IMG/VR virus record: IMGVR_UViG_3300010998_000005
Span: 1 to 64,000 of that record
DNA: 64,000 nucleotides
Origin: a virus
Lineage: Duplodnaviria > Caudoviricetes
Reading direction: 5' to 3' (one strand)
The notes under the pieces were generated by a model, which did no database searches, had not been told where the DNA came from, and saw nothing but the letters and a program-made list of their open reading frames with translations. Made by a program: the position numbers and the translations under genes. Shown piece by piece: positions 2,917 through 32,433 of the stretch; the first letter of the stretch is position 1, and the number at the start of each line of letters is the position of its first letter.

Positions 2917-3822
2917 TTAGAATAGTGTAGGTTGCTTTTGTTCTATCACATCTTTTAGTAAGTTCTTTCTTGTATAATACTTAGATTGCATTGTTGCAAA
3001 CATATCGGGTTGTATATTCTTTTCAAGATTGCTGCACGCATCAATATAGAAACGCTTGCTGACTTCCATGCCATAGGCTTTGCGTCCAAGTGATGCAGCA
3101 GCCACCAATGTACTACCACTTCCTGCGCAAGGGTCGATAACCACATCATCAGGGTCGGTAAACAATTCTACCAATCGTTTCAACAAAGGTATAGGCTTTT
3201 GTGTTTCATGGGTGCGTTCCATTCCTAAATCCCTTACCCAATCCATACAATTAAAAACCATTTGACCGTTGTTATTGAACTTTGGCAGTTTGTCACGATA
3301 GAGTATCAATCCATATTCGCAATTACCCACCACACGCATATTTGCTTTAAGCACTTGCGCTGAATAGTTTTTGCGGAATACAAGGTTTATGTAATGCTTG
3401 AAGCCGTAACGTTTCGCAAGTTCTATAAGGTAGAACTGTTGCATAAACTCGCAAAAGACTATCATACAAGGTGCGCTTGTTGAAGTTCTGCCCCCCCCAT
3501 TTTCTTTTGGTTCGGGTTTAAGCATTTGTGAAGCAAAGTGCATAAATTCAGCAGGCTTGAAATTCTCGTCAGTTACAAAGAATGTTTCGCCTGCTTTGTC
3601 GCTTTCTCCGTTCTTGTTATTGCCACCGATATACCAAGAAGGATTGCTACCATAAGCCTTGTCACCTAACGAATAAGGTATATCCGTAAGGATAAGTTGC
3701 GCTTTTGGTATGCCATAACGTTTGAAGTCTTGAAAAGAACTATTGAATAGTCCGACACGATTGTTGAGCATTCTAAATTCTGGATTCTCGACAGTTGCTA
3801 CGTCTTTTGTTGTCAGTTTCAT
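2917..3822 (-). CDS. DNA amino-methyltransferase (N6-A/N4-C, beta class)
   Basis: Motif IV LILTDIPY precedes motif I DPCAGSGST; HETQKP motif; C-terminus QPTLF. Confidence 0.9.
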   Translation of the reverse strand: MKLTTKDVATVENPEFRMLNNRVGLFNSSFQDFKRYGIPKAQLILTDIPYSLGDKAYGSNPSWYIGGNNKNGESDKAGETFFVTDENFKPAEFMHFASQMLKPEPKENGGGRTSTSAPCMIVFCEFMQQFYLIELAKRYGFKHYINLVFRKNYSAQVLKANMRVVGNCEYGLILYRDKLPKFNNNGQMVFNCMDWVRDLGMERTHETQKPIPLLKRLVELFTDPDDVVIDPCAGSGSTLVAAASLGRKAYGMEVSKRFYIDACSNLEKNIQPDMFATMQSKYYTRKNLLKDVIEQKQPTLF

Positions 3823-3850: not shown

Positions 3851-4276
3851 TTAAAATTTTCCTTTCTGTTGTGGTATCATCTTGAATCCACCGTAAACAC
3901 AAAATAAGCCGAACAAAGCCATAATAGCATAAAGGCTTATAGTTATTCCGTCTGCCATACTAACGTGCGCTACAAGCCTACGGAACGGCAAATTAAGCGT
4001 TATTAGGTAAGCACACCTAAACGCATACTTGCAAAGTTCAAGTGCAAAGCACAAAATCCAAACAAGTAACACATCAAGCCAATCTATAAAGACTATATCT
4101 GAAAGAAAGAATGTGATAGGCAAATTGTAAAGCGTTTCATCCTCAACGTCAACTATCAGATTTTGGCTTATTACCGCATAAATGCTTTCTATATATCCGA
4201 CAAGTAATATGAATGCCAACACAAACGGAATAATCTTACCTAAACGGATAAGAATTTTTCTAAATAGATTTGCCAT
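3851..4276 (-). CDS. Integral membrane protein
   Basis: Several hydrophobic segments in 141 aa. Confidence 0.6.
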   Translation of the reverse strand: MANLFRKILIRLGKIIPFVLAFILLVGYIESIYAVISQNLIVDVEDETLYNLPITFFLSDIVFIDWLDVLLVWILCFALELCKYAFRCAYLITLNLPFRRLVAHVSMADGITISLYAIMALFGLFCVYGGFKMIPQQKGKF

Positions 4277-4431
4277 AATGTTTATGTTTTGCGTTTAACC
4301 CTAACTCTTAATAAGCCAGTGTTAGCAAGCATGGTGGGGTGTCCTATATTACCTACGTTGTTTTTTCTTGTTGTAGGTCTTAAAGATGCCCTCTGCTTTA
4401 CACGCAACTTTCCTCGCTTCGCCATAGGTCA

Positions 4432-4677
4432 CTAATCTAACTTTTTGTATTTGTTACTAACCCCACCCTCGTAAGCGATGAAGCCGTTGTCTAATACTTC
4501 TTGAACCCTAACTATCTCCGTAGTGTCAAGTTCTACATAGTCGCCAACCTTTATATCTCTTGGTATAAAGCATTCGCAAGTTTGGGTGTATTGAGCAACC
4601 TTTCCTTTATTAGGACACACTCCCTTGCCCATAACATCATAAGAAAAGTTCTTACATTCGTAGCAATAGTTCTTCAT
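4432..4677 (-). CDS. Small Cys-rich hypothetical protein
   Basis: CYECKNF...CP...CECF pattern common in phage accessory proteins. Confidence 0.55.
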   Translation of the reverse strand: MKNYCYECKNFSYDVMGKGVCPNKGKVAQYTQTCECFIPRDIKVGDYVELDTTEIVRVQEVLDNGFIAYEGGVSNKYKKLD

Positions 4678-20477: not shown

Positions 20478-20882
20478 ATGAATAAGAAACCGAAATTCTA
20501 CATTAAGAACGCAAAGGGCAGATACGAGGAATACAAAGAACCCGTACAAGACTACGACAACAAGTTATACCGTAAAGTGGGTAACAGATATGAGCCTTGC
20601 GATATGCTTGTAACGCAAAGTTTAAGCGAGGGTGTGTGGGTAGTGACCAAGCATAAAAGCAGTAAGTCCTATGCAAGCGGAAAATATCTTTTGGAAAACT
20701 TCATGTGCCTAAAGGCGAGTGACATTCAAGAAGTATCGTTGGCAAAGTTAGGCGGTATGGAGAAGTTAGCACACTATCTATCGCAACATTGGGATGAGTT
20801 ACCTACAAACGCAAGCCAATACGAGCGATGTCAAGCGATAGTAGGGTTGTTGTTCAAGTACGAAAATCACAACGAAAGTTAA
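20478..20882 (+). CDS. Hypothetical protein
   Basis: 134-aa ORF in operon. Confidence 0.55.
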   Translation: MNKKPKFYIKNAKGRYEEYKEPVQDYDNKLYRKVGNRYEPCDMLVTQSLSEGVWVVTKHKSSKSYASGKYLLENFMCLKASDIQEVSLAKLGGMEKLAHYLSQHWDELPTNASQYERCQAIVGLLFKYENHNES

Positions 20883-20885
20883 AAT

Positions 20886-20917
20886 TTTGGTGTATTCAAA
20901 TTCTTTTCGTAACTTTG
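20886..20917 (+). promoter_or_regulatory. Promoter of the methyltransferase operon
   Basis: TTTG-N20-TAACTTTG. Confidence 0.7.
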
Positions 20918-21037
20918 CACAAGAATTAGTTGAAAGTGGTGTGCGAGACCGCTAATGACAATACTTATAGCCCCTTTCGTGTAGGTGATACTCGCACTAT
21001 CCCTACCGATTGGGGCGTTTTATTTGGAAAATGTAAA

Positions 21038-21880
21038 ATGGAATATACGAAAGATAACCCACTTAAAGTAATAACCCTTTGCAGTGGTTATGATAGTCAG
21101 TGCCTCGCCCTGAATAGATTAAAAGGGTGTTATCCCGATTTCGACTATGAATTAGTTGCTTGGTCTGAGTTTGACCCCGAAAGCAAAGCATCGCTGGAGA
21201 AGCAGCCTGCGGTTATAGCACATAATGCCTTATTCCCACAATGGAAAGACCGCAATCTTGGCGATATGACTAAAATAGAGTGGAATAAACTAAATCTGCA
21301 ATGCGACTTATTGTTTTATAGTACTCCATGCCAGAGTATTTCCGCGGCAGGACTGCAACACGGATTTGTTGAGAGTAGCGGTACACGTTCAAGCATTATC
21401 TGGAACGTGCGTGATGCAGTAATAGCACTAAAACCAAAATTCCTATGCCTTGAAAATGTTAAAGCAATGGTGTCAGGCAAGTTCGTGGGAATGTTTAATC
21501 TGTGGCAGAGAGAGTTGGAAAAACTCGGCTATGCTAACTTTGCACAAGTCCTTAATTCTAAAGACTACGGCGTACCACAAAACAGAGAGCGTATATTCCT
21601 CGTTTCAATAAGGATTGACAATGAGAATGATTACCCTAAGTATTATTTCCCACAGCCTTTCCGTTTGGAAAAGAAACTCAAAGATGTGTTAGAGGACAAT
21701 GTGGACGAGAAGTATTACCTGAGTGATGAAAGGGTGCAGGGTTTAATGGCAAGTACGGAGAAAGAGCAGGAGCGTGGAAATGGCTTTGCGTGGAATCCGA
21801 CAGATGGCAGCGGTGTTGCTTGCACCATTCAGACGACACAGAACAGGAAAACGGATAATTACTTGTTTGATGAACAATAA
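21038..21880 (+). CDS. DNA cytosine-C5 methyltransferase, N-terminal catalytic half (motifs I-VIII plus first TRD-like unit)
   Basis: TLCSGYD (I), YSTPCQSIS (IV), LENV (VI), YGVPQNRERIF (VIII); stops at NYLFDEQ without motifs IX-X. Confidence 0.92.
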   Translation: MEYTKDNPLKVITLCSGYDSQCLALNRLKGCYPDFDYELVAWSEFDPESKASLEKQPAVIAHNALFPQWKDRNLGDMTKIEWNKLNLQCDLLFYSTPCQSISAAGLQHGFVESSGTRSSIIWNVRDAVIALKPKFLCLENVKAMVSGKFVGMFNLWQRELEKLGYANFAQVLNSKDYGVPQNRERIFLVSIRIDNENDYPKYYFPQPFRLEKKLKDVLEDNVDEKYYLSDERVQGLMASTEKEQERGNGFAWNPTDGSGVACTIQTTQNRKTDNYLFDEQ

Positions 21881-22065
21881 AATTACCCCCCCAGAGGTGG
21901 ATATGCGAACAGCGGATACCGACACCGCAGACAAAGGATGGTTGTTGTCCTGCGTTGACAGCGACATACGATTATGCGAGTTTTGCGAATATGTTTAGCG
22001 TGGGTCATTATCCAAGGATGGGTGTAATAGAGATAGGTCATTATGAAGAAGTTTATACCGATTAA
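21870..22065 (+). CDS. TRD-like cassette 1, interrupted at a C7 tract (21886-21892)
   Basis: With C6 it reads MNNKITPQRWICEQRIPTPQTKDGCCPALTATYDYASFANMFSVGHYPRMGVIEIGHYEEVYTD. Confidence 0.7.
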
Positions 22066-22228
22066 CACGGACGCTGATGGTAATGCAAAGACTATTTTGG
22101 CTTGTTGTTATAAATTTGGTTTTTCAGCCTTGTTGAATTGGGAAGGTTCAACAATGACTTGCGTAGGTGTGGTACAAGATGAAGAAACTGACCGAAGGAA
22201 TCCGAATGAAGAAGATACTTGTTTATGA
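22043..22228 (+). CDS. TRD-like cassette 2 (intact)
   Basis: MKKFIPINTDADGNAKTILACCYKFGFSALLNWEGSTMTCVGVVQDEE... Confidence 0.75.
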   Translation: MKKFIPINTDADGNAKTILACCYKFGFSALLNWEGSTMTCVGVVQDEETDRRNPNEEDTCL

Positions 22229-22414
22229 TGATTATAATTCTGTTCTACCCCCCCCAATAAGCAGGGGGTTATAGGAACGATAACGCCACAATTCGGCAAC
22301 TCTACATTAAGAAATGGCTGGAAAATAATAGAAGTATATGAAGAAGAAAGCGACAGGCGGTGTGCGCCTTGCGAAGATGATACACAAGGTAAACAAGCCT
22401 TATTTGTGGATTGA
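22179..22414 (+). CDS. TRD-like cassette 3, interrupted at a C8 tract (22248-22255)
   Basis: With C9 it reads ...ILVYDDYNSVLPPPNKQGVIGTITPQFGNSTLRNGWKIIEVYEEE... Confidence 0.7.
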
Positions 22415-22508
22415 CACTTACAACCAATGTGTAAGTGACATTGCCGGAACGATAAAAGCGAGAATAAATAGTAATAATATGTATTATGTAAGTGTACCAA
22501 ATGGCTAA
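22338..22508 (+). CDS. TRD-like cassette 4 (intact, 56 aa)
   Basis: MKKKATGGVRLAKMIHKVNKPYLWIDTYNQCVSDIAGTIKARINSNNMYYVSVPNG. Confidence 0.75.
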   Translation: MKKKATGGVRLAKMIHKVNKPYLWIDTYNQCVSDIAGTIKARINSNNMYYVSVPNG

Positions 22509-22689
22509 ACAAGCATACGGACTCGGACGCTCTCGCAGTAGCAGTGGGAAAGGTGATATTGTAAATTGGCATCTTAATCCTTACGTCAACTGCATCCACA
22601 CTCTTGTAGGTGGAGGGTGGAAAACGATGGAAGTCTTAATTGTAGAAGTTTATGATGATACTGACTTGTGCGATAAGAGGAAGGAGTGA
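22501..22689 (+). CDS. TRD-like cassette 5 (intact)
   Basis: MAKQAYGLGRSRSSSGKGDIVNWHLNPYVNCIHTLVGGGWKTMEVLIVEVYDD... Confidence 0.75.
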   Translation: MAKQAYGLGRSRSSSGKGDIVNWHLNPYVNCIHTLVGGGWKTMEVLIVEVYDDTDLCDKRKE

Positions 22690-22822
22690 TGGCGAGTGGC
22701 ATTCGTCCGACCATAGCCAGAGGTTAGAAGTCGGCGGTGACATAGCTAATTCGATAACGTCTGTAAGCAAGAACAGTTTAATACTGATAGTTAATGAAGA
22801 TAGTAAAAGCGATAGGTCGTGA
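22652..22822 (+). CDS. TRD-like cassette 6 (intact, 56 aa)
   Basis: MMILTCAIRGRSDGEWHSSDHSQRLEVGGDIANSITSVSKNSLILIVNEDSKSDRS. Confidence 0.75.
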   Translation: MMILTCAIRGRSDGEWHSSDHSQRLEVGGDIANSITSVSKNSLILIVNEDSKSDRS

Positions 22823-22976
22823 AAGGACGGAAGAGGAAAAGAGACGTAGGCATTTGTATGGTGACAAAGGGGCAAGGTTCTCTAAAGGTAAGCAGTTATG
22901 CCTACTTGGTGATATAATAGGAGCGATAACGACTTTATGCACAAAAGACAACTTGATATGCGAGATAGAATTATAA
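22794..22976 (+). CDS. TRD-like cassette 7 (intact)
   Basis: MKIVKAIGRERTEEEKRRRHLYGDKG...GDIIGAITTLCTKDNLICEIEL. Confidence 0.75.
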   Translation: MKIVKAIGRERTEEEKRRRHLYGDKGARFSKGKQLCLLGDIIGAITTLCTKDNLICEIEL

Positions 22977-23138
22977 AATTAGGGTACTATATAAAGCCCA
23001 ACCGAAAGAATCCGAGCAAGGGTGTGGTGTATAGCATTGAAGGCATTGCACCTTGTATGTGCGATTTTTCTGGGGGGGGGTAATTTAGTGCCGACAATAG
23101 TAGTAAAAGATGAACGGGAAAGTAAAGAAACTGTTTAA
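22958..23138 (+). CDS. TRD-like cassette 8, interrupted at a G9 tract (23072-23080)
   Basis: With G8 it reads MRDRIIKLGYYIKPNRKNPSKGVVYSIEGIAPCMCDFSGGGNLVPTIVVKDERESKETV; with G9 a TAA follows immediately. Confidence 0.72.
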
Positions 23139-23252
23139 CATCTACGGCTTTGATGGCGGCAACTTCGCAGGGAATGTGTACGACCCTGAATATATCAGTC
23201 CTGCCCTCAGCACAATGGGGGGGGTAATCAGCAACCTTTAATAATTACAGAT
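23110..23252 (+). CDS. TRD-like cassette 9, interrupted at a G8 tract (23217-23224)
   Basis: With G9 it reads MNGKVKKLFNIYGFDGGNFAGNVYDPEYISPALSTMGGGNQQPLIITD and fuses in frame to the C-terminal half. Confidence 0.75.
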
Positions 23253-23525
23253 ATGGAACAGAAACAAAAAATCACCTTGCCTAAAGAATTAGAGGGCAAG
23301 AAGTTTAGAATCAGAAAACTTACTCCGAGAGAATGCGGACGTTTGCAAGATGTGGATGATAAAGACATTGACATCATCGAGAACGCAGGTTTGAGTAATT
23401 CAGCAATGTATAAATTGTACGGGAATAGTATAACTTTATCGGTCTTATTTTTCATTTTTGAAGAATTATTTATACCTTTGCACCCGAAAAGGGGCAAAGA
23501 GCCTATTCAATTATTATTATTTTGA
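23253..23525 (+). CDS. DNA cytosine-C5 methyltransferase, C-terminal half (motifs IX-X)
   Basis: IRKLTPRECGRLQDV (IX), MYKLYGNSI (X); ends IQLLLF. Confidence 0.9.
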   Translation: MEQKQKITLPKELEGKKFRIRKLTPRECGRLQDVDDKDIDIIENAGLSNSAMYKLYGNSITLSVLFFIFEELFIPLHPKRGKEPIQLLLF

Positions 23526-23526
23526 T

Positions 23527-24822
23527 ATGAGAAAGGAAAAAGTAATTCAGATGGATTTAGATGGAAACTACATTTCCGTCTTTGAAAGTGCAGTTGCTGC
23601 TTCTAAAGCATTAGGAGTTGGTTGTGGTAACATAAGTTTATGTTGTCGTGGACTTGCGGACAGAGTAAAAAATTATCGTTTTAGGTATGTTGATGATGTA
23701 CTAAACGAAAAAGCCGTGAAAATTCGACAAGTACGACACAACAAAGCGTCAGATAACCACAAGAAGGCATGGATTCCGAAAAGGAGAAAGGTTTATCAAT
23801 TCTCTTTAGATGCAGTATTGATTGCTTGCTATAAAAACGCAGATATAGCATCAAGTAAAAACGGAATCCCAAAGCATCTAATATTCCAATGCTGTAATGG
23901 GACAATCATCCAAAGCGGAGGGTATATATGGAGTTATAATAACAAAGTAGAATCTGTATTGAAGAACGATATTCCAACTGAACAAGGAGAAGAGTGGCGT
24001 GATGTAGTCGGGTACGAAGGTCTTTATATGGTAAGTTCTTTTGGTCGAGTTTGGAGTTTAAGGAGGAGAACAGAAAAAGTCGGGAATTTGATAGGTGGAT
24101 TTATGCTTACAAACCATATAGACAATAGGGGGAGAACGTCCAACACGCTAACAACAAAAAATGGGGAAAAAGTTAATGCAGTAACCGCTCGTCTTGTTGT
24201 AATGTCTTTTATTCCTAATCCAGACAACCTTCCTCAAGTAAACCATAAGGATGAAAATCCATTAAACAACCATGTGGATAATCTTGAATGGTGTACGGCT
24301 AAATATAATTGCAACTATGGAACAAGGATTGAAAGGATTAAAGAGAAGCAAAACATACCAATACTCCAATACACACTGAATGGTGAATTTGTTGCAGAAT
24401 ACGCTTCAATGCACATTGCCGCGGATGCTATAAATGCAGATGCAGGACACATTTGTGATTGTTGCTTGGGAAATAGGTCTTATGCCTATGGTTTCTTTTG
24501 GCGTTACAAAGATGATGAAATGTATAATTCTGCCAAAGTAAGGCTGCAAGATAAAATTTCCGCAAGTAAAAAATCGAGAGCAGACAAGTTTACGGCGAGA
24601 GCATTAAATGTAGTACAACTTGATATGAACGGTAAATATATACAGACACATCAGTCAAGTAGGCTTGCAGCGGAAAGAGTTGGAAGTTTCCGACCAATGA
24701 TTATAAATTGTTGCAATGGGAAAATATCAAATGTTAAAGGCTACAAGTTTATGTACGAGCGAGATTTCCGCAAGATGTTCATAGAAACGGAAAACGAAAG
24801 CCAACAACTAAGTTTATTCTGA
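23527..24822 (+). CDS. Free-standing HNH homing endonuclease with NUMOD4 and repeated NUMOD1-like domains
   Basis: EEWRDVVGYEGLYMVSSFGRV (NUMOD4); VNHKDENPLNNHVDNLEWCT (HNH); repeated V.Q..LDG..I..F/Y.S...A modules; ends QQLSLF. Confidence 0.9.
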   Translation: MRKEKVIQMDLDGNYISVFESAVAASKALGVGCGNISLCCRGLADRVKNYRFRYVDDVLNEKAVKIRQVRHNKASDNHKKAWIPKRRKVYQFSLDAVLIACYKNADIASSKNGIPKHLIFQCCNGTIIQSGGYIWSYNNKVESVLKNDIPTEQGEEWRDVVGYEGLYMVSSFGRVWSLRRRTEKVGNLIGGFMLTNHIDNRGRTSNTLTTKNGEKVNAVTARLVVMSFIPNPDNLPQVNHKDENPLNNHVDNLEWCTAKYNCNYGTRIERIKEKQNIPILQYTLNGEFVAEYASMHIAADAINADAGHICDCCLGNRSYAYGFFWRYKDDEMYNSAKVRLQDKISASKKSRADKFTARALNVVQLDMNGKYIQTHQSSRLAAERVGSFRPMIINCCNGKISNVKGYKFMYERDFRKMFIETENESQQLSLF

Positions 24823-24827
24823 TATAA

Positions 24828-25637
24828 ATGGGAGAAAGTATGATTGAACTTGACCATATCTATTGTGAAGATTGTTTAATCGGCATGAAGCGGATTCCTG
24901 ACGGGAGCGTGGATGCGGTGATTTGCGATTTGCCGTATGGGACAACCGCCTGCGCCTGGGACTCCGTGATACCCTTCGACAAGTTGTGGGAGCAGTACCG
25001 ACGTATCTGCAAAACAAATGCTCCGATAGTGCTGTTTGGCATAGAGCCATTTACGGCGGCTCTCATTATGTCGAATGTAAAGGAGTTTAGGGAGAAATTA
25101 ACATGGGAAAAACATAAACCGAGTAATATTGGCAATGCAAAGTACATGCACCTAAAATATTCGGAAGACATTGTAGTATTCTCCCGTGGAAAATGCACTT
25201 TTAATCCTCAAATGCAACCAAGAATAAGCGACAGAGTAAGAGAGGCGCAAAAAGGGAACAGTAAGCAATGGCGTAGTAATCGCAAGGAAACTGGCGAAGT
25301 GTCTTTTGCAACGCAATATGAGCCGCGAGATTGGAACTCATTTGATGCTGATAAGAAATACCCAGGAAATGTATTTTATTTCCCAGCCGTTGTTTCTAAT
25401 TCCCACGAGAAATGCGACCACCCCACCCAGAAGCCCGTTGACCTGCTGCGCTATCTCGTGCTGACCTACACCAACGAGGGCGACACGGTGCTCGACAACT
25501 GCATGGGCAGCGGCACGACGGCCATCGCCTGTATCAAGGAAAAGCGGCACTTTTTAGGATTCGAGCTGAATGAAGATTATTACAAGAAAGCAATCAAGAG
25601 AATAGAAGTTGAAAAATCTCAATTAACGCTATTTTGA
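24828..25637 (+). CDS. DNA amino-methyltransferase (N6-A/N4-C, beta class)
   Basis: DAVICDLPYG (IV), HPTQKP, VLDNCMGSGTT (I); ends QLTLF. Confidence 0.92.
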   Translation: MGESMIELDHIYCEDCLIGMKRIPDGSVDAVICDLPYGTTACAWDSVIPFDKLWEQYRRICKTNAPIVLFGIEPFTAALIMSNVKEFREKLTWEKHKPSNIGNAKYMHLKYSEDIVVFSRGKCTFNPQMQPRISDRVREAQKGNSKQWRSNRKETGEVSFATQYEPRDWNSFDADKKYPGNVFYFPAVVSNSHEKCDHPTQKPVDLLRYLVLTYTNEGDTVLDNCMGSGTTAIACIKEKRHFLGFELNEDYYKKAIKRIEVEKSQLTLF

Positions 25638-25638
25638 C

Positions 25639-26202
25639 ATGAAAGAAGAATGGAAAGAAATAGATGGTCATAGTGGGTACATGGTATCTAACTATGGAAA
25701 CATAAAAAGCCTGTCATTTAACAAGACTGGTGTAGAGAAAAAACTTACACCATGCGTTGATAAGAAAGGCTACCTTTTTGTGTGTCTTCACGGTAAACAA
25801 TTAAGGGTACATAGACTTGTGGCATTAGCATTTATACCAAAAGTTAATGGAAAAGAACTAATCAACCACATCAATGAGGATAAACAGAATAATGCCGTAT
25901 GGAATTTAGAGTGGTGTACCGCATCTTATAATCTTAATTACAATGGTAATAGAGAAAGGATTTCCAAGAAGCACAAAAAGAAAGTGTATGCTTATAAAGA
26001 TAAAGAGTTATTTCAATCTTTCGACAGTATAACAGAAGCCGCTAAAGCGTTCGGTGTTTCTATCAATAATATATCTTCGTGTTTACACGGAAGAAAGAAA
26101 CAAGCATGTGGGTGTGAATGGTCATTCGAGTTGAACAAGGAATACTACGACAAAGCCATGAAGCGCATCGACAACGAACGCCGACAACTGACATTATTTT
26201 AA
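25639..26202 (+). CDS. Free-standing NUMOD4-HNH endonuclease
   Basis: EEWKEIDGHSGYMVSNYGNIKS; RVHRLVALAFI; INHINEDKQNNAVWNLEWCT; ends QLTLF. Confidence 0.9.
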   Translation: MKEEWKEIDGHSGYMVSNYGNIKSLSFNKTGVEKKLTPCVDKKGYLFVCLHGKQLRVHRLVALAFIPKVNGKELINHINEDKQNNAVWNLEWCTASYNLNYNGNRERISKKHKKKVYAYKDKELFQSFDSITEAAKAFGVSINNISSCLHGRKKQACGCEWSFELNKEYYDKAMKRIDNERRQLTLF

Positions 26203-26444
26203 TTATCACCCCGAACCCCGAAAGCATAACAATAAAACTATGTAACATTCAAAAGGAGATACAACTATGACACAATACATCAACAAAGCCGCTGTAGTGG
26301 CGGAGAGTTCAACAGTTGCGACTTTATGACGTTCTCTCCGCGAAAAGGTTTTGTATGTAGCAAATATTTTGATGACTGAGTATGCGTATGATGCCGAATT
26401 TGGCACTTTTCGTGGCTTCTGGCAGCTTCGAATCGCAAAATGGT

Positions 26445-26520
26445 GTAGTTATCATGTCGGTTGGAGAAATGCGCTCAGAGCGGCTTAAATGCGTTTTTGG
26501 TTTTTTAAGTTAATAAATTC
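26445..26520 (-). repeat. Dispersed intergenic element, copy 4
   Basis: Plus strand GTAGTTATC-N-AAATGCGCTCAGAGCGGCTTAAATGCGTTTTTGGTTTTTTAAGTTAATAAATTC. Confidence 0.7.
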
Positions 26521-26532
26521 AAAGAATAAGAT

Positions 26533-28050
26533 ATGGAAGAAAAGAAGACACACATCTACAATCTGCAACTGACAGAAAAGCAGGCAACGCTGTTGTCCTA
26601 CGCTTGCGACAGACTTTCACGAATCATCTGCGGGCAAGACTGGACTTATCAAGAGTTCATGGAAGAAGCGTGGGAGAAACGCTGCAAGGAAGCCACTGGC
26701 AACATGATGGATGATAAGTGGGATGGCGGTTGGCACAATATGCGGCATGAAGCGGAAGAAATCAGCAAGAACATCAAGAAGAGGTTTTGGGGTTTGGAAC
26801 GTAATGCCATGTACGGCATCCACTATGACGATGCGGCGGACATTCTATTTGACTTGCACCAATGTATCAGACACCAACTTTGGCTCGATAGACCCGAAAG
26901 CGAGAAATCGACTATCACGGTGGATGCTTCCGAGGCAATGCGTGTTGGAAATGAGCCGTTGGCAATTATTGAACGGATAAAATATAAAGAACTATGACAA
27001 GAGAACAATTCGAGACGTTAAAGGTTGGCGACAAAGTACGCCATGCTTTCGGTGGTATCGGTGTTGTCACGGAGAAAGAGGAAAACGGCTATACGGTGAA
27101 AGATAAAGGCTTTGACCAAGGTGATGGAATGTGTGAGGTTTCATTTGCATGGAATGAAGGTGAGATATGGTTGCCAACAGGGGTAATGGAATCTCCTTCT
27201 AAAACATTTCCAAGAGTTAATGAAGAACGGATAAAAGACAAGGCGGAATAGTTATGTTACAGGCGAGAACGAAAGAACAGAATGAGCACATCGAAGGTAT
27301 CGTAAAAAAATATGTCGACGTGAATACGCAAAACAGCAAATTTGTTTCTGCGGATGTTTATAAAAACTTTGAAGAACTTGTTGAAATCAATTTAAGATGC
27401 GAAGATTGTGATGAATTATTATCCATTGATATTCGTTTCGACATGATGGCTGAAATTGTCGATTACTTGCGAAAAGAGAATGAACAAATAGAAACTCCAA
27501 CTCGATGTGAAGTTTCTTTTTCTGACGGTATATTGAGTTATGGCTTGCTGCATACACCACATGAGGAGGTGATGAATTTCTGTAAGAAACTTGCATGGGT
27601 GAAAGGTAATGACTTTGACTATTATTACAAGCAGTACGTTAAAACAAGAAAGATAACGATACGAATGAGGGAGAAGTAATATGAACAGAAGACAGAAAAA
27701 TAAATACCTAAAGCGTAATGTGCCATGTGCACACGAATATCGGTATATGGCATATTACGGTGATATAGCGACACGTTGCCTTTGCAAAACGAGCAAAGAA
27801 GACAATGACTGCTGTAATACGCTGAAACATGAAAATAAAAATAGTTCCAAGATGGGAGCAATTTATGGCTCCAGAAGGGTATGAAACAAAACTATACGAT
27901 GTGTATCATGGCTTCACCCACTTTCTGTTCTTTACCAAGTGGAAGTTAGATAAGGCAGGTCTTGACGAACAAGAAATGAAAGAGTATCTGCAACCATTTA
28001 TGTTTGGTCATTCACCCTTATTGGTATCTAAAATTACGATAAACTTATGA
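26533..28050 (+). other. Five hypothetical genes (26533-26997, 26994-27251, 27254-27679, 27681-27884, 27829-28050)
   Basis: Overlapping or abutting ORFs on the coding strand. Confidence 0.6.
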
Positions 28051-31248: not shown

Positions 31249-31290
31249 CAAAGTTAAATGTTTAACGAAAACGAAAAAGAAAAAGAAAGT

Positions 31291-32433
31291 ATGAAAATTC
31301 AATTAAACGTAAATGACATCCTTACGCCGCTTGTAAACGCAACAAGCGTGGTAGGCACAAAGAACTCTATCGCAATCCTTTCTTGCGTAATGATTGAGGT
31401 AGGAAAGAACAACACCCTTATAATTACGGCAAGCGATGGCTCGCAATGGGTTTCCACTAAGGCGACAATCATAGAAACGGATATTGCCGAGGGAACAAAG
31501 TTCTGCATCGAAGCAAAGGACTTAAAGCAAGCTCTGTCTAACCTTTCAGGGCGTATCGTAGAACTTAACTTTGATGAAACAGCGCACACGATGACTTGTG
31601 CTTTCGCCAATGGTAAGTTTACGTTGCCATACCTTAGTGCAGATGAATACCCACAAAGCACACCAATAGAGGGTGATGACAAGGTGGAATACATCTTAGA
31701 CGCACCAAAGATTGCAAGAATGATTGCGCAAACCAACTACGCAATGGCTAACGACCCATTGAGAATGGTTATGAACGGTGCGTACTTTGATTTCCATAAG
31801 GATGACCTTTCCATTGTGGCAAGTGACGGACATAAACTCGCACTTTGCCAAGATAAGACCATAAAGAACGAAGATGGCGAGGACAAATCCTTTATCCTTA
31901 TGGCTAAGTCTGCAAGCATCCTATCTACGTTAATAGACAAAGAGGAAGGACAAATCAAGATTGCTTTCAACGGTAATAATGTTTGCATCAACAACCAGAG
32001 CTTCAGACTTACGGCAAAACTCATAGAGGGCAGGTTTCCCAACTATAATGCCGTGATACCAAAGGATAGCGACAAAAGGGTTAAGGTGAACAAGGATGAT
32101 ATACTTAGCGCAATGAAGCGCATACTGCCTATGAGTAGTACAACGACCGAGATTGTAAAGTTTATCTTTTCACCAAACCTGCTTACTTTGTTCTGCGAGG
32201 ATGTAGATTACAGCAAGTCTGCAAGTGAAACAATGCAAAGCGACTACCCTAATCAAGCGGACTTTACCATAGGCTTTAAGGGTAGCGCAGTCGTACAATC
32301 TTTGCAAGCCATAGAGGGTGACGAAGTTGTGATACGAATGACCGAAAGCAGCAGGGCAGCGATATTCACAAGCGCAACAACCGATGAAACGTATTCACAC
32401 ATAGCATTGATAATGCCCATATTGGTAGATTAA
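31291..32433 (+). CDS. dnaN: DNA polymerase III beta sliding clamp homolog
   Basis: About 380 aa; ADEYP, ASDGHKLA, LIEGRFPNYNAVIP, C-terminal LIMPI. Confidence 0.93.
   Translation: MKIQLNVNDILTPLVNATSVVGTKNSIAILSCVMIEVGKNNTLIITASDGSQWVSTKATIIETDIAEGTKFCIEAKDLKQALSNLSGRIVELNFDETAHTMTCAFANGKFTLPYLSADEYPQSTPIEGDDKVEYILDAPKIARMIAQTNYAMANDPLRMVMNGAYFDFHKDDLSIVASDGHKLALCQDKTIKNEDGEDKSFILMAKSASILSTLIDKEEGQIKIAFNGNNVCINNQSFRLTAKLIEGRFPNYNAVIPKDSDKRVKVNKDDILSAMKRILPMSSTTTEIVKFIFSPNLLTLFCEDVDYSKSASETMQSDYPNQADFTIGFKGSAVVQSLQAIEGDEVVIRMTESSRAAIFTSATTDETYSHIALIMPILVD

Follow-up and report, generated by a model that had tools for sequence, protein, structure and literature searches.

Two HNH endonuclease genes in the ends of phage DNA methyltransferase genes, with replaced and captured C-terminal tails

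How can a nuclease gene lie in the end of another gene's coding sequence with that gene still closed by a stop codon, and why should the nuclease itself finish in a peptide resembling the end of its neighbour? These questions are raised by a locus in the 64,000-nucleotide stretch of DNA analysed here (the window), which derives from a complete 78-kb phage genome and carries an HNH nuclease gene directly behind a C5-cytosine methyltransferase gene. An earlier note, made from the sequence alone, had proposed that the HNH gene inserted into the 3' end of the methyltransferase gene, supplied a substitute C-terminus and fused to the displaced original tail. The coordinates and sequences behind this proposal were confirmed, with the nuclease gene (HNH1) lying between two tails, A1 and B1, and the same architecture was found again on the adjacent N6/N4 methylase gene (25560-26202). 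We consider it probable (roughly 0.8) that two cassettes of the I-HmuI type replaced the methylase tails, that the displaced native tails are now read by the nucleases, and that homing explains the arrangement. The features concerned are as follows.

2917-3822, minus strand: third DNA methyltransferase (N6_N4), ending in QPTLF (Pfam and translation)
20930-21880, plus strand: C5-cytosine methyltransferase, N-part with motifs I-VIII (Pfam DNA_methylase, E 4.5e-42)
23253-23525, plus strand: C5-methyltransferase, C-part with motifs IX-X and the substitute tail at its end (Pfam DNA_methylase profile positions 265-322 of 324)
about 23457-23525, plus strand: tail A1, substitute C5-methylase C-terminus, QLLLF and stop
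23527-24822, plus strand: HNH1, I-HmuI-like homing endonuclease gene reading in frame into tail B1 (Pfam)
24766-24822, plus strand: tail B1, native C5-methylase tail (FRKMF...QLSLF), now the C-terminus of HNH1
24828-25637, plus strand: MTase2, N6/N4 DNA methyltransferase (Pfam N6_N4_Mtase, E 3.5e-30)
25560-25637, plus strand: tail A2, substitute tail of MTase2 (25 codons and stop, ending in QLTLF)
25639-26202, plus strand: HNH2, I-HmuI-like homing endonuclease gene reading in frame into tail B2 (Pfam NUMOD4, HNH_3, NUMOD1)
26125-26202, plus strand: tail B2, native N6/N4 methylase tail (last helix of the domain and QLTLF), now the C-terminus of HNH2
31258-32433, plus strand: phage DnaN, the beta sliding clamp (all three Pfam DNA_pol3_beta domains)

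The N-part of the C5-methyltransferase is 73.6% identical to that of L001 and 70% to that of L355 (L numbers denote other contigs, P numbers HNH homologues), and its C-part can be aligned with the C-parts of L001, L346, L005, L239, L241 and L244. This C-part ends with a TGA at 23523-23525, and the ATG of HNH1 follows one base on, at 23527. Within tail A1 the GC content goes down to 0.29-0.31. The sole homologue of this tail is the one preceding the HNH gene of L239 (42% over 31 aa), and no counterpart was found at the end of any of about 75 HNH-less C5-methyltransferase relatives. Since it closes the methylase frame and is absent from these relatives, tail A1 is indeed a substitute C-terminus; the case named beforehand as fatal to the idea, an HNH-less relative ending in the substitute tail, occurred in 0 of the about 75.

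The opposite prediction, that methylases lacking the insertion should end in the tail now carried by HNH1, was borne out in more than 10 of them: the ending ...[HY][IL]FRKMF[IV]...Q-x-[ST]-LF is present in HNH-less L001, L354-L363, L369 and L372, and L355 agrees with the predicted uninserted ending at 16 of 19 residues. The 18 residues of tail B1 are identical to the native tail of L355 at 15 positions, including the whole of FRKMFIETENE, and to tail B of L346 at all 18, and a DNA block in it, TTCCGCAAGATGTTCATAGA, is common to L001, L004 and L005. The fusion of the nuclease to a displaced original tail therefore stands. A further argument of the earlier note, that the two tails align with each other, fared less well. 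Within the window the similarity of A1 and B1 is weak on its own (local BLOSUM62 score 27; p about 0.014 against shuffles, rising to 0.035 when the final five residues are kept in place), it falls inside the null range in a scan of 90 HNH loci, and the tails share little except F-x-x-[LM]-F-I and the final motif. What raises the first element above chance is that HNH-less relatives end in the tail of HNH1.

HNH1 has 688 homologues, the nearest no closer than 52-70% identity, and is missing from L001 and about 75 other methylase relatives. Pfam recognized NUMOD1, NUMOD4, HNH_3 and the I-HmuI NUMOD-like domain in 23527-24819, the protein consisting of two extra N-terminal NUMOD1 modules, NUMOD4, HNH_3 and C-terminal NUMOD modules. 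Its HNH_3 score, 24.4 bits, is just below the Pfam cutoff of 24.8, and the catalytic N-H...N...N-L-E-W columns are invariant across 25 aligned homologues. The tail is foreign to HNH domains, as had been suggested: I-HmuI (174 aa, structure solved) ends at the end of the HNH core, placing the captured tail outside the I-HmuI fold.

At the second element the two tails are recognizable within the window itself, A2 (25560-25637) and B2 (26125-26202) scoring 90 against a null maximum of 57. At the start of A2 the GC content falls from 0.62 to 0.30-0.33, and this tail is identical at 21 of 24 positions to the tail preceding the HNH gene of L318, the methylase bodies being only 53-59% identical. Tail B2 is identical at 22 of 25 positions to the native tail of HNH-less L168, as against 16 of 25 for A2, and at 20 of 25 to tail B of L318. 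Tails of the B2 type also close the HNH-less methylases L334-L345, and B2 includes the last ~14 positions of the Pfam N6_N4_Mtase domain; MTase2 itself matches profile positions 1-220 of 221, up to residue 256 of 269. The core of HNH2 (HNH_3 score 34.8 bits) is 84% identical to the HNH protein of L318, and HNH2 is 62% identical to that of L117. In an AlphaFold2 model of HNH2 the tail is predicted to form an added helix (residues 167-185) that follows the final core strand, with a pLDDT of 65-75.

Comparison with L318 delimits the second cassette: a sharp-edged block of high identity comprises the substitute tail, the HNH gene and the native tail, with unrelated flanks. DNA identity is 45-65% in the methylase body, 77-88% from about 25545-25560 and 72-88% across the HNH gene and tail B, and drops to 40-53% past 26202. 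The steps of the GC profile coincide with the cassette boundaries. At the first site a mosaic is seen with L346: its tail B, together with the 3' half of its HNH gene, is 85% identical in DNA to the window, but its tail A and HNH 5' half are different, and its DNA past the stop codon is unrelated. The identity profiles with L318 and L346 and the intermediate conservation of tail B2 are compatible with tail B being the resident gene's own as well as with its being partly carried by the cassette. Both stop/start junctions in the window carry a common motif (repeat family D3), and in L004 and L346 the ATG of the HNH gene overlaps the TGG-TAA of the methylase. A scan of 20500-26700 retrieved fewer promoter-like sites than shuffled sequences, and no terminator was found downstream of either tail. 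We also considered, and rejected, co-conversion of the methylase flank that precedes the cassette: the C-part core is 64-69% identical to HNH-bearing L239 and L241 and 49-54% to L001, but this signal faded with more relatives, and since HNH-less L354 and L355 are equally close (64%, as is HNH-bearing L239), we make no claim on the direction of conversion.

Both sites are polymorphic. At the first, the window, L346, L004, L005, L239, L241 and L244 carry an insertion, which L001 and L354-L372 lack; at the second, the window, L318 and L117 carry one, and L168 and L334-L345 do not. Few of the relatives have an occupied site, an HNH-type gene standing directly behind the C5-methyltransferase in 1 of 80 (IMG/VR). 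The order of tail A, HNH gene and tail B recurs in independent assemblies. Tail B is in frame with the nuclease in L239, L346 and L318. In L004, L005, L241 and L244 it lies out of frame behind an HNH gene ending at its own stop, in L117 it is interrupted by an internal stop codon, and some of these displaced tails are decaying. Since displaced tails elsewhere are out of frame or decaying, tail replacement is the general rule and in-frame capture a variant, which has been inherited through whole HNH sub-clades. This variant is neither recent nor private to the present genome. HNH homologues with the same tail, which had been named as a possible refutation, do exist (P0004, P0010, P0016 and P0022). 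Genomic contexts of tail-bearing HNH homologues were taken from L346, L239, L240, L243 and L318, and the one that could be read for a homologue sharing the tail of HNH1, P0004 in L346, is the same site of the orthologous methylase; this position indicates an inherited fusion and is no evidence for a tail native to HNH proteins. Among cultured phage records, megablast of 20900-26300 gave no match and tblastn of P0004 gave distant matches only (at most 37% identity over most of the query).

The following course of events would account for this anatomy. Two free-standing NUMOD4/HNH_3/NUMOD1 nuclease genes have each inserted within the final 18-25 codons of a phage methyltransferase gene, in a cassette made up of a replacement tail in the methylase frame (including QLxLF), a stop codon, and an HNH start one base on or overlapping. 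Because the cassette supplies the replacement tail, the methylase is full length without splicing. The native tail has been pushed behind the nuclease gene, and since it lies in the nuclease frame in both cassettes, both nucleases end in a methylase-derived peptide. During co-infection the nuclease may nick or cut the uninterrupted tail-coding sequence of HNH-less relatives, and repair would then copy the cassette into the cut allele. The diverged tail pair could serve as short homology arms fitting any methylase gene with a similar end, and the target, being split and diverged, would keep the nuclease from attacking the genome that carries it. The sequence comparisons show the anatomy, the presence/absence polymorphism, the cassette boundaries and where the tails come from, whereas nuclease cleavage, homing and self-immunity are inferred.

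Could the insertions instead be old and immobile, a single illegitimate recombination at each site having duplicated the gene end, followed by vertical inheritance, with an HNH protein now inactive or repurposed? The rarity of occupied sites among relatives, the distance of the closest HNH1 relatives (just 52-70% identity) and the slightly sub-threshold HNH_3 score of HNH1 would fit such a history. We nevertheless think it improbable, given the discordance between cassette and flanks in the comparison with L318, the mosaic with L346, and the invariance of the catalytic columns. Far less credible is the absence of any duplication, the HNH and methylase tails being alike through independently evolved clamp-binding motifs. 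The little that A1 and B1 have in common might be explained in this way, but B1 matches native methylase tails far past the motif, in protein (FRKMFIETENE in L355) as well as in the shared DNA block, B2 holds the end of the N6_N4_Mtase domain and closely follows L168, and out-of-frame relics behind HNH genes with their own stop codons are not explicable by selection on the nuclease.

We give even less credence to an HNH gene residing in a self-splicing intron or an intein, with the native methylase tail regained by splicing. In its favour, the native tail persists downstream, and I-HmuI itself is encoded inside a group I intron. Against this, no intron or other ribozyme family of Rfam was detected in 20500-26700 (no intron family at E <= 1), and in L004, L005, L117 and L244 the relic does not lie in frame or contains a stop codon. 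An intein is excluded because the HNH gene starts in another frame, after the methylase frame has been closed by a complete, motif-bearing tail and a stop codon.

The preferred reading, two cassettes that replaced the methylase tails, leaves the question of whether the capture of the native tail is of use to the nuclease. Four consecutive ORFs end in QLLLF, QLSLF, QLTLF and QLTLF, and the third methylase, which has no HNH gene behind it, ends in QPTLF; among ORFs of at least 50 codons in real genes, the Q-[LP]-x-L-F end is limited to these five. QLxLF at the extreme C-terminus is the consensus for binding the beta clamp (PMC4549789), and the phage encodes a DnaN of its own, which is the likely partner of these tails. 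The main reading could thus be extended to an adaptive capture, in which the methylase peptide would tether the nuclease to the beta clamp of phage or host, for example on the replicating DNA of a co-infecting relative. In the clade closest to HNH1, about 22 of 39 members have an in-frame Q-x-x-[LF]-[FWL] end, kept despite a linker past the conserved ...YERDY that varies from 7 to 27 residues. The fused tail is kept in 5 of 5 members of the clade closest to HNH2 (73-100% identical, all 187 aa), and the position of the tail outside the I-HmuI fold also favours a use for it. On the other side, the out-of-frame relics in L004 and L241 have intact motifs too, so that every round of homing could restore the motif from native methylase tails, with no selection for it in the nuclease; the in-frame excess is 56% against an expected one third, uncorrected for shared ancestry; and entire sister HNH clades end at their own stop codons. 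We regard adaptive capture as a tentative extension, somewhat less likely than not, and the full combination of phage cassettes with their own homology arms and a homing endonuclease tethered to a phage or host clamp as rather doubtful. We know of no homing endonuclease tied to the replisome.

The closest parallel is in fungal mitochondria, where mobile ORFs (mORFs) have replaced C-termini in Allomyces macrogynus atp6 and in Glomus atp6, atp9, cox2 and nad3 (PMC3630166). The likeness to such 3'-end replacements noted previously extends to the layout: an endonuclease ORF comes with a foreign, in-phase C-terminal copy, and the native C-terminal part remains downstream of the ORF (PMC3630166). 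In the window the in-phase tails are A1 and A2, and the native part is the closer one to empty alleles in both elements (B1 15 of 18 to L355, A1 without a match; B2 22 of 25 to L168, A2 16 of 25). Whereas mORFs encode LAGLIDADG or GIY-YIG enzymes and occupy mitochondrial respiratory genes, the nucleases here are of the I-HmuI HNH type and occupy phage methylase genes; unlike in mORFs, the duplicate is just 18-25 codons long and has endowed the nuclease with a putative protein-docking motif. The cassettes, having HNH-family nucleases and a phage genome, are an analogue of mORFs and not members of that group, and can be regarded as their phage counterpart. In fold and domain order the nucleases resemble I-HmuI, the HNH homing endonuclease of Bacillus phage SPO1 (PDB 1U3E), whose full chain is matched by the HNH2 family profile (E 1.4e-35). 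NUMOD4 scores 39.2 and 46.3 bits in the two HNH proteins of the window, and both contain NUMOD1 and PF22083. Unlike I-HmuI, their genes are free-standing, with no intron found, and add 18-25 methylase-derived residues at the C-terminus.

Free-standing endonucleases of T-even phages (Seg and Mob), which home without introns, and nuclease genes at boundaries of genetic exchange (PMC10448857) are similar in three respects: they are found between conserved genes or at their ends, their presence varies among relatives, and mosaic similarity breaks off where they stand. The literature consulted on these systems yielded no cassette that replaces the end of its target gene with a carried copy or is fused to the displaced end. 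In the open-access literature we found neither a phage account of tail replacement by a homing endonuclease nor a homing endonuclease or phage methylase with a QLxLF motif. C-terminal QLxLF motifs have been described in bacterial replication and repair proteins and in IS transposases (PMC4549789). Here too the consensus pentapeptide stands at the extreme C-terminus of DNA-acting enzymes, those of mobile elements included, but the candidate clamp motif of the nuclease is second-hand, from the invaded gene.

A selfish nuclease gene can thus invade a useful gene within its coding sequence, with no intron or intein, and leave that gene working. The carried duplicate of the gene end would at once repair the host gene, disrupt the nuclease target and supply homology for the next invasion. 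If the captured QLxLF does bind the clamp, a homing endonuclease would be tied to the replisome, and a mobile element would have obtained, from the invaded gene, a peptide for interacting with its host. In annotation, one should be prepared for short gene ends that seem "orphan" and for nuclease ORFs whose tails are foreign.

A flank-duplication scan of 90 HNH ORFs revealed further cases, at another C5-methyltransferase tail (L015) and at the head of thyX (L045). The arrangement is recurrent in gut and rumen phage metagenomes, in the two methylase families described here, a third C5-methylase and thyX, and, being recurrent, duplicated gene ends around HNH genes may mark intron-less homing in general and be easy to search for. 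The thyX case is a mirror image of the arrangement at the methylase tails.

The window belongs to a complete virus record of 78,094 bp with direct terminal repeats, from a phage of an uncultured host. Two HNH genes in this window directly follow DNA methylase genes, and comparison with related loci in other contigs (L001, L355 and others) showed such HNH genes to be polymorphic insertions at fixed points within the last 18–25 codons of methylase genes. The replacement tail (tail A) comes in with the HNH gene and closes the methylase frame, and the native tail (tail B) stays 3' of the HNH gene. The genes concerned are:

2917-3822, minus strand: third methylase with a Q-[LP]-x-L-F end
20930-21880, plus strand: C5-cytosine methyltransferase, N-part
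23253-23525, plus strand: C5-cytosine methyltransferase, C-part, separated from the N-part by a broken specificity region
23527 (ATG) to 24822 (stop), plus strand: HNH1 gene
24828-25637, plus strand: N6/N4 methyltransferase
25639-26202, plus strand: HNH2 gene
31258-32433: phage DnaN

Both HNH proteins have a NUMOD4, HNH_3, NUMOD1/I-HmuI-NUMOD-like architecture (Pfam), and the HNH2 family profile matched a single solved structure, I-HmuI (1U3E, 174 aa), at full length (E 1.4e-35). No Rfam intron families were found in 20500-26700. In both elements the methylase stop and the HNH start are arranged as TGA-N-ATG with a common junction motif, and in two relatives (L004 and L346) the HNH start codon and the methylase stop share bases; these tight junctions suggest a coupling of HNH translation to that of the methylase.

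An earlier note had proposed that HNH1 inserted into the 3' end of the C5-methylase gene, supplied a substitute C-terminus and captured the displaced tail. Its sequences and coordinates for the junction and tails proved correct on re-check: the methylase frame is indeed closed by the substitute C-terminus, with a stop at 23525 behind QLLLF, and the HNH1 ATG lies one base past the TGA. HNH1 itself ends FRKMF...QLSLF (24766-24822). The similarity between tails A1 and B1 is weak (local score 27; shuffle p ~0.014, or 0.035 with the last five residues fixed) and stays inside the null range of a 90-locus HNH scan, so that the case for element 1 depends on relatives.

The HNH-less locus L001, reached via the methylase N-part (73.6% identity) and hence independently of any tail, has a methylase ending ...LFRKMFIET...QMSLF. 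Searching with a C-part alignment added 80 C5-methylase loci, with a readable C-part in 77. One of the 80 carries an HNH-type gene directly 3' of the methylase, and about half of the remaining methylases end in [HY]-[IL]-F-[RK]-[KN]-[ML]-F...Q-x-[ST]-L-F; the tail in L355 is identical to that of HNH1 at 15/18 positions, FRKMFIETENE included. Among L001 and this search set, no HNH-less C5-methylase ends in the window's tail A1. A DNA block, TTCCGCAAGATGTTCATAGA, is common to the native tail of L001 and the sequence behind the HNH genes of the window, L004 and L005; given this block and the L001 and L355 tails, the HNH1 tail is a methylase tail, with FRKMF being part of the last methylase helix after motif X. 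Many HNH-less relatives end in the type predicted by the earlier note, the observation of which is confirmed and the interpretation supported.

The same order of tail A, HNH and tail B was found in other occupied alleles. In four of them (L004, L005, L241 and L244) the methylase closes in its own motif-bearing tail, the HNH gene has its own stop codon, and a second methylase tail lies just 3' of it in a different frame; this relic is intact in L004 and L241 and altered in L005 (QPTLF) and L244 (...SLIDD). In the other four (L239, L240, L243 and L346) the HNH gene reads the tail in frame. The single detected homologue of tail A1 is the tail preceding the HNH in L239. L346, a contig placed in a Bacteroidales genome bin, represents this locus in a closer relative. 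Compared with the window, its methylase shows patchy DNA identity of 79-92% up to 23326. The two loci do not align over 23336-24175 (tail A, flanked by the remaining C-part and the HNH 5' half), are 84.6% identical over 24193-24825 (the 3' half of HNH and tail B, the latter identical in protein at 18/18 positions), and do not align 3' of the stop codon. The similarity breakpoints in 23336-24190 lie within the HNH gene, just 5' of the catalytic motif; the adjacent substitute tail therefore co-varies with the nuclease's N-terminal DNA-binding modules and not with its catalytic half. The L346 tail A differs from that of the window and ends QLSLW, since the HNH ATG overlaps TGG-TAA. The overlap of ATG and methylase stop (TTATGGTAA; L004:85-95 and L346:3485-3500), with a clamp motif ending in W rather than F, constrains this methylase motif in both loci.

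Element 2 repeats the arrangement on the N6/N4 methylase, whose 25-codon tail (25560-25637) has a second counterpart at the end of HNH2 (26125-26202). Both tails start with TTCGAG, take in the final positions of Pfam domain N6_N4_Mtase, and score 90 against each other (null maximum 57). Tails of type B end the HNH-less methylases L168 (22/25 matches) and L334-L345. In L117 this site holds an HNH gene 62% identical to HNH2 that ends at a stop codon of its own; behind it lies an out-of-frame relic tail interrupted by a stop codon. L318 carries an HNH with a core 84% identical to the HNH2 core. Its DNA identity to the window is 45-65% over the methylase body, climbs to 77-88% from about 25545-25560, holds at 72-88% across HNH2 and tail B2, and falls to 40-53% past 26202; in protein, the methylase bodies are 53-59% identical, with matches at 21/24 positions of tail A and 20/25 of tail B. 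At 25560 the GC content drops from 0.62 to 0.30-0.33, and it returns to 0.43 in tail B2. Tail A, HNH and tail B are therefore conserved as one unit between dissimilar flanks, which is the appearance of a mobile cassette.

In the proposed mechanism, the putative nuclease would recognise the tail-coding sequence where it is uninterrupted, in empty alleles, and nick or cut there; repair would then copy in the cassette. Its two diverged tails could offer homology on the left and on the right with any methylase gene that ends similarly, and the carrier would be protected by its split, diverged target. The nearest described phenomenon is C-terminal replacement by fungal mitochondrial mobile ORFs, a parallel also drawn in the earlier note: in Allomyces atp6 and Glomus atp6, atp9, cox2 and nad3, a foreign in-phase C-terminal copy comes first, an endonuclease ORF next, and the relic of the native C-terminal part last (PMC3630166). 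The phage elements would work in a similar way but are analogues, not members, differing in enzyme family (HNH), genome (phage) and targets (DNA methylases), and in a much shorter duplicated piece bearing a putative docking motif. Within phage systems, they group with free-standing homing endonucleases and nuclease genes at genetic-exchange boundaries (PMC10448857). In the open-access literature we found no case of phage tail replacement by a homing endonuclease, nor of a clamp motif on one.

The Q-[LP]-x-L-F motif ends only five gene products in the window, namely the four consecutive proteins encoded between 23253 and 26202 and the methylase at 2917-3822. Ends of this type match the published C-terminal beta-clamp-binding consensus (PMC4549789), and the phage has its own DnaN gene. 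The motif terminates about 22 of the 39 proteins in the closest HNH1 clade (a raw count that ignores kinship), following a variable linker of 7-27 residues after a conserved ...YERDY, and the fused tail is kept in 5/5 members of the closest HNH2 clade; HNH sister clades end at their own stop. Apparent in-frame tail capture is thus not limited to this genome. In the AF2 model the HNH2 tail is a helix outside the I-HmuI-like core, with lower confidence. Selection for a predicted clamp-binding end on the nuclease would fit the motif pattern across both clades, and we regard it as a tentative explanation, at odds clearly short of even. The pattern also fits a relic tail that is renewed from native methylase tails at each homing event, because the motif can persist in out-of-frame relics too (L004, L241).

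Scanning HNH loci for flank duplications returned two further cases. In L045:3900-5430 the first 25 codons of thyX stand on both sides of an HNH gene (3995-4540; score 89, null maximum 46; Thy1 domain confirmed by Pfam), forming a mirror image in which the copy preceding the HNH is a thyX stub and the second copy heads the intact gene. In L015:2066-3540 a different, unrelated C5-methylase has a duplicated end with a borderline score of 44: the methylase ends ...PQVIYEIFKSI..., followed by the HNH and then by a second copy, PQVAFEIFKAI, in a different frame. The duplication principle is therefore not restricted to methylases or to 3' ends.

Several methylase loci have further peculiarities. L318:600-4930 holds a row of six N6/N4 methylase genes, most with a Q-x-x-L-F type tail; the one preceding the HNH gene carries a frameshift and has lost the final F of its substitute tail (QLTLDFK). 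In L168 (G002:C1:24974-28065) a 2.3-kb insertion with other ORFs interrupts the HNH-less relative of the N6/N4 methylase near residue 90. Between the C5-methylase N-part and C-part, L005:1600-3300 carries two additional ORFs, one HNH-like by eye with no Pfam hit and one in which Pfam detects PAPS_reduct (E 1.4e-11). In the window's C5-methylase, the variable, target-recognition region (21881-23252) consists of many short ORFs split by stops and runs of 8-9 G or C, and one additional G at 23214-23221 would fuse its last module to the C-part. Fragmented variable regions also occur in independent assemblies (L001:6790-7760, L239:1280-2380, L238:700-1350 and L346:2520-3135), with modules ending ...YETE-stop in L239 and ...IKF-stop in L238.
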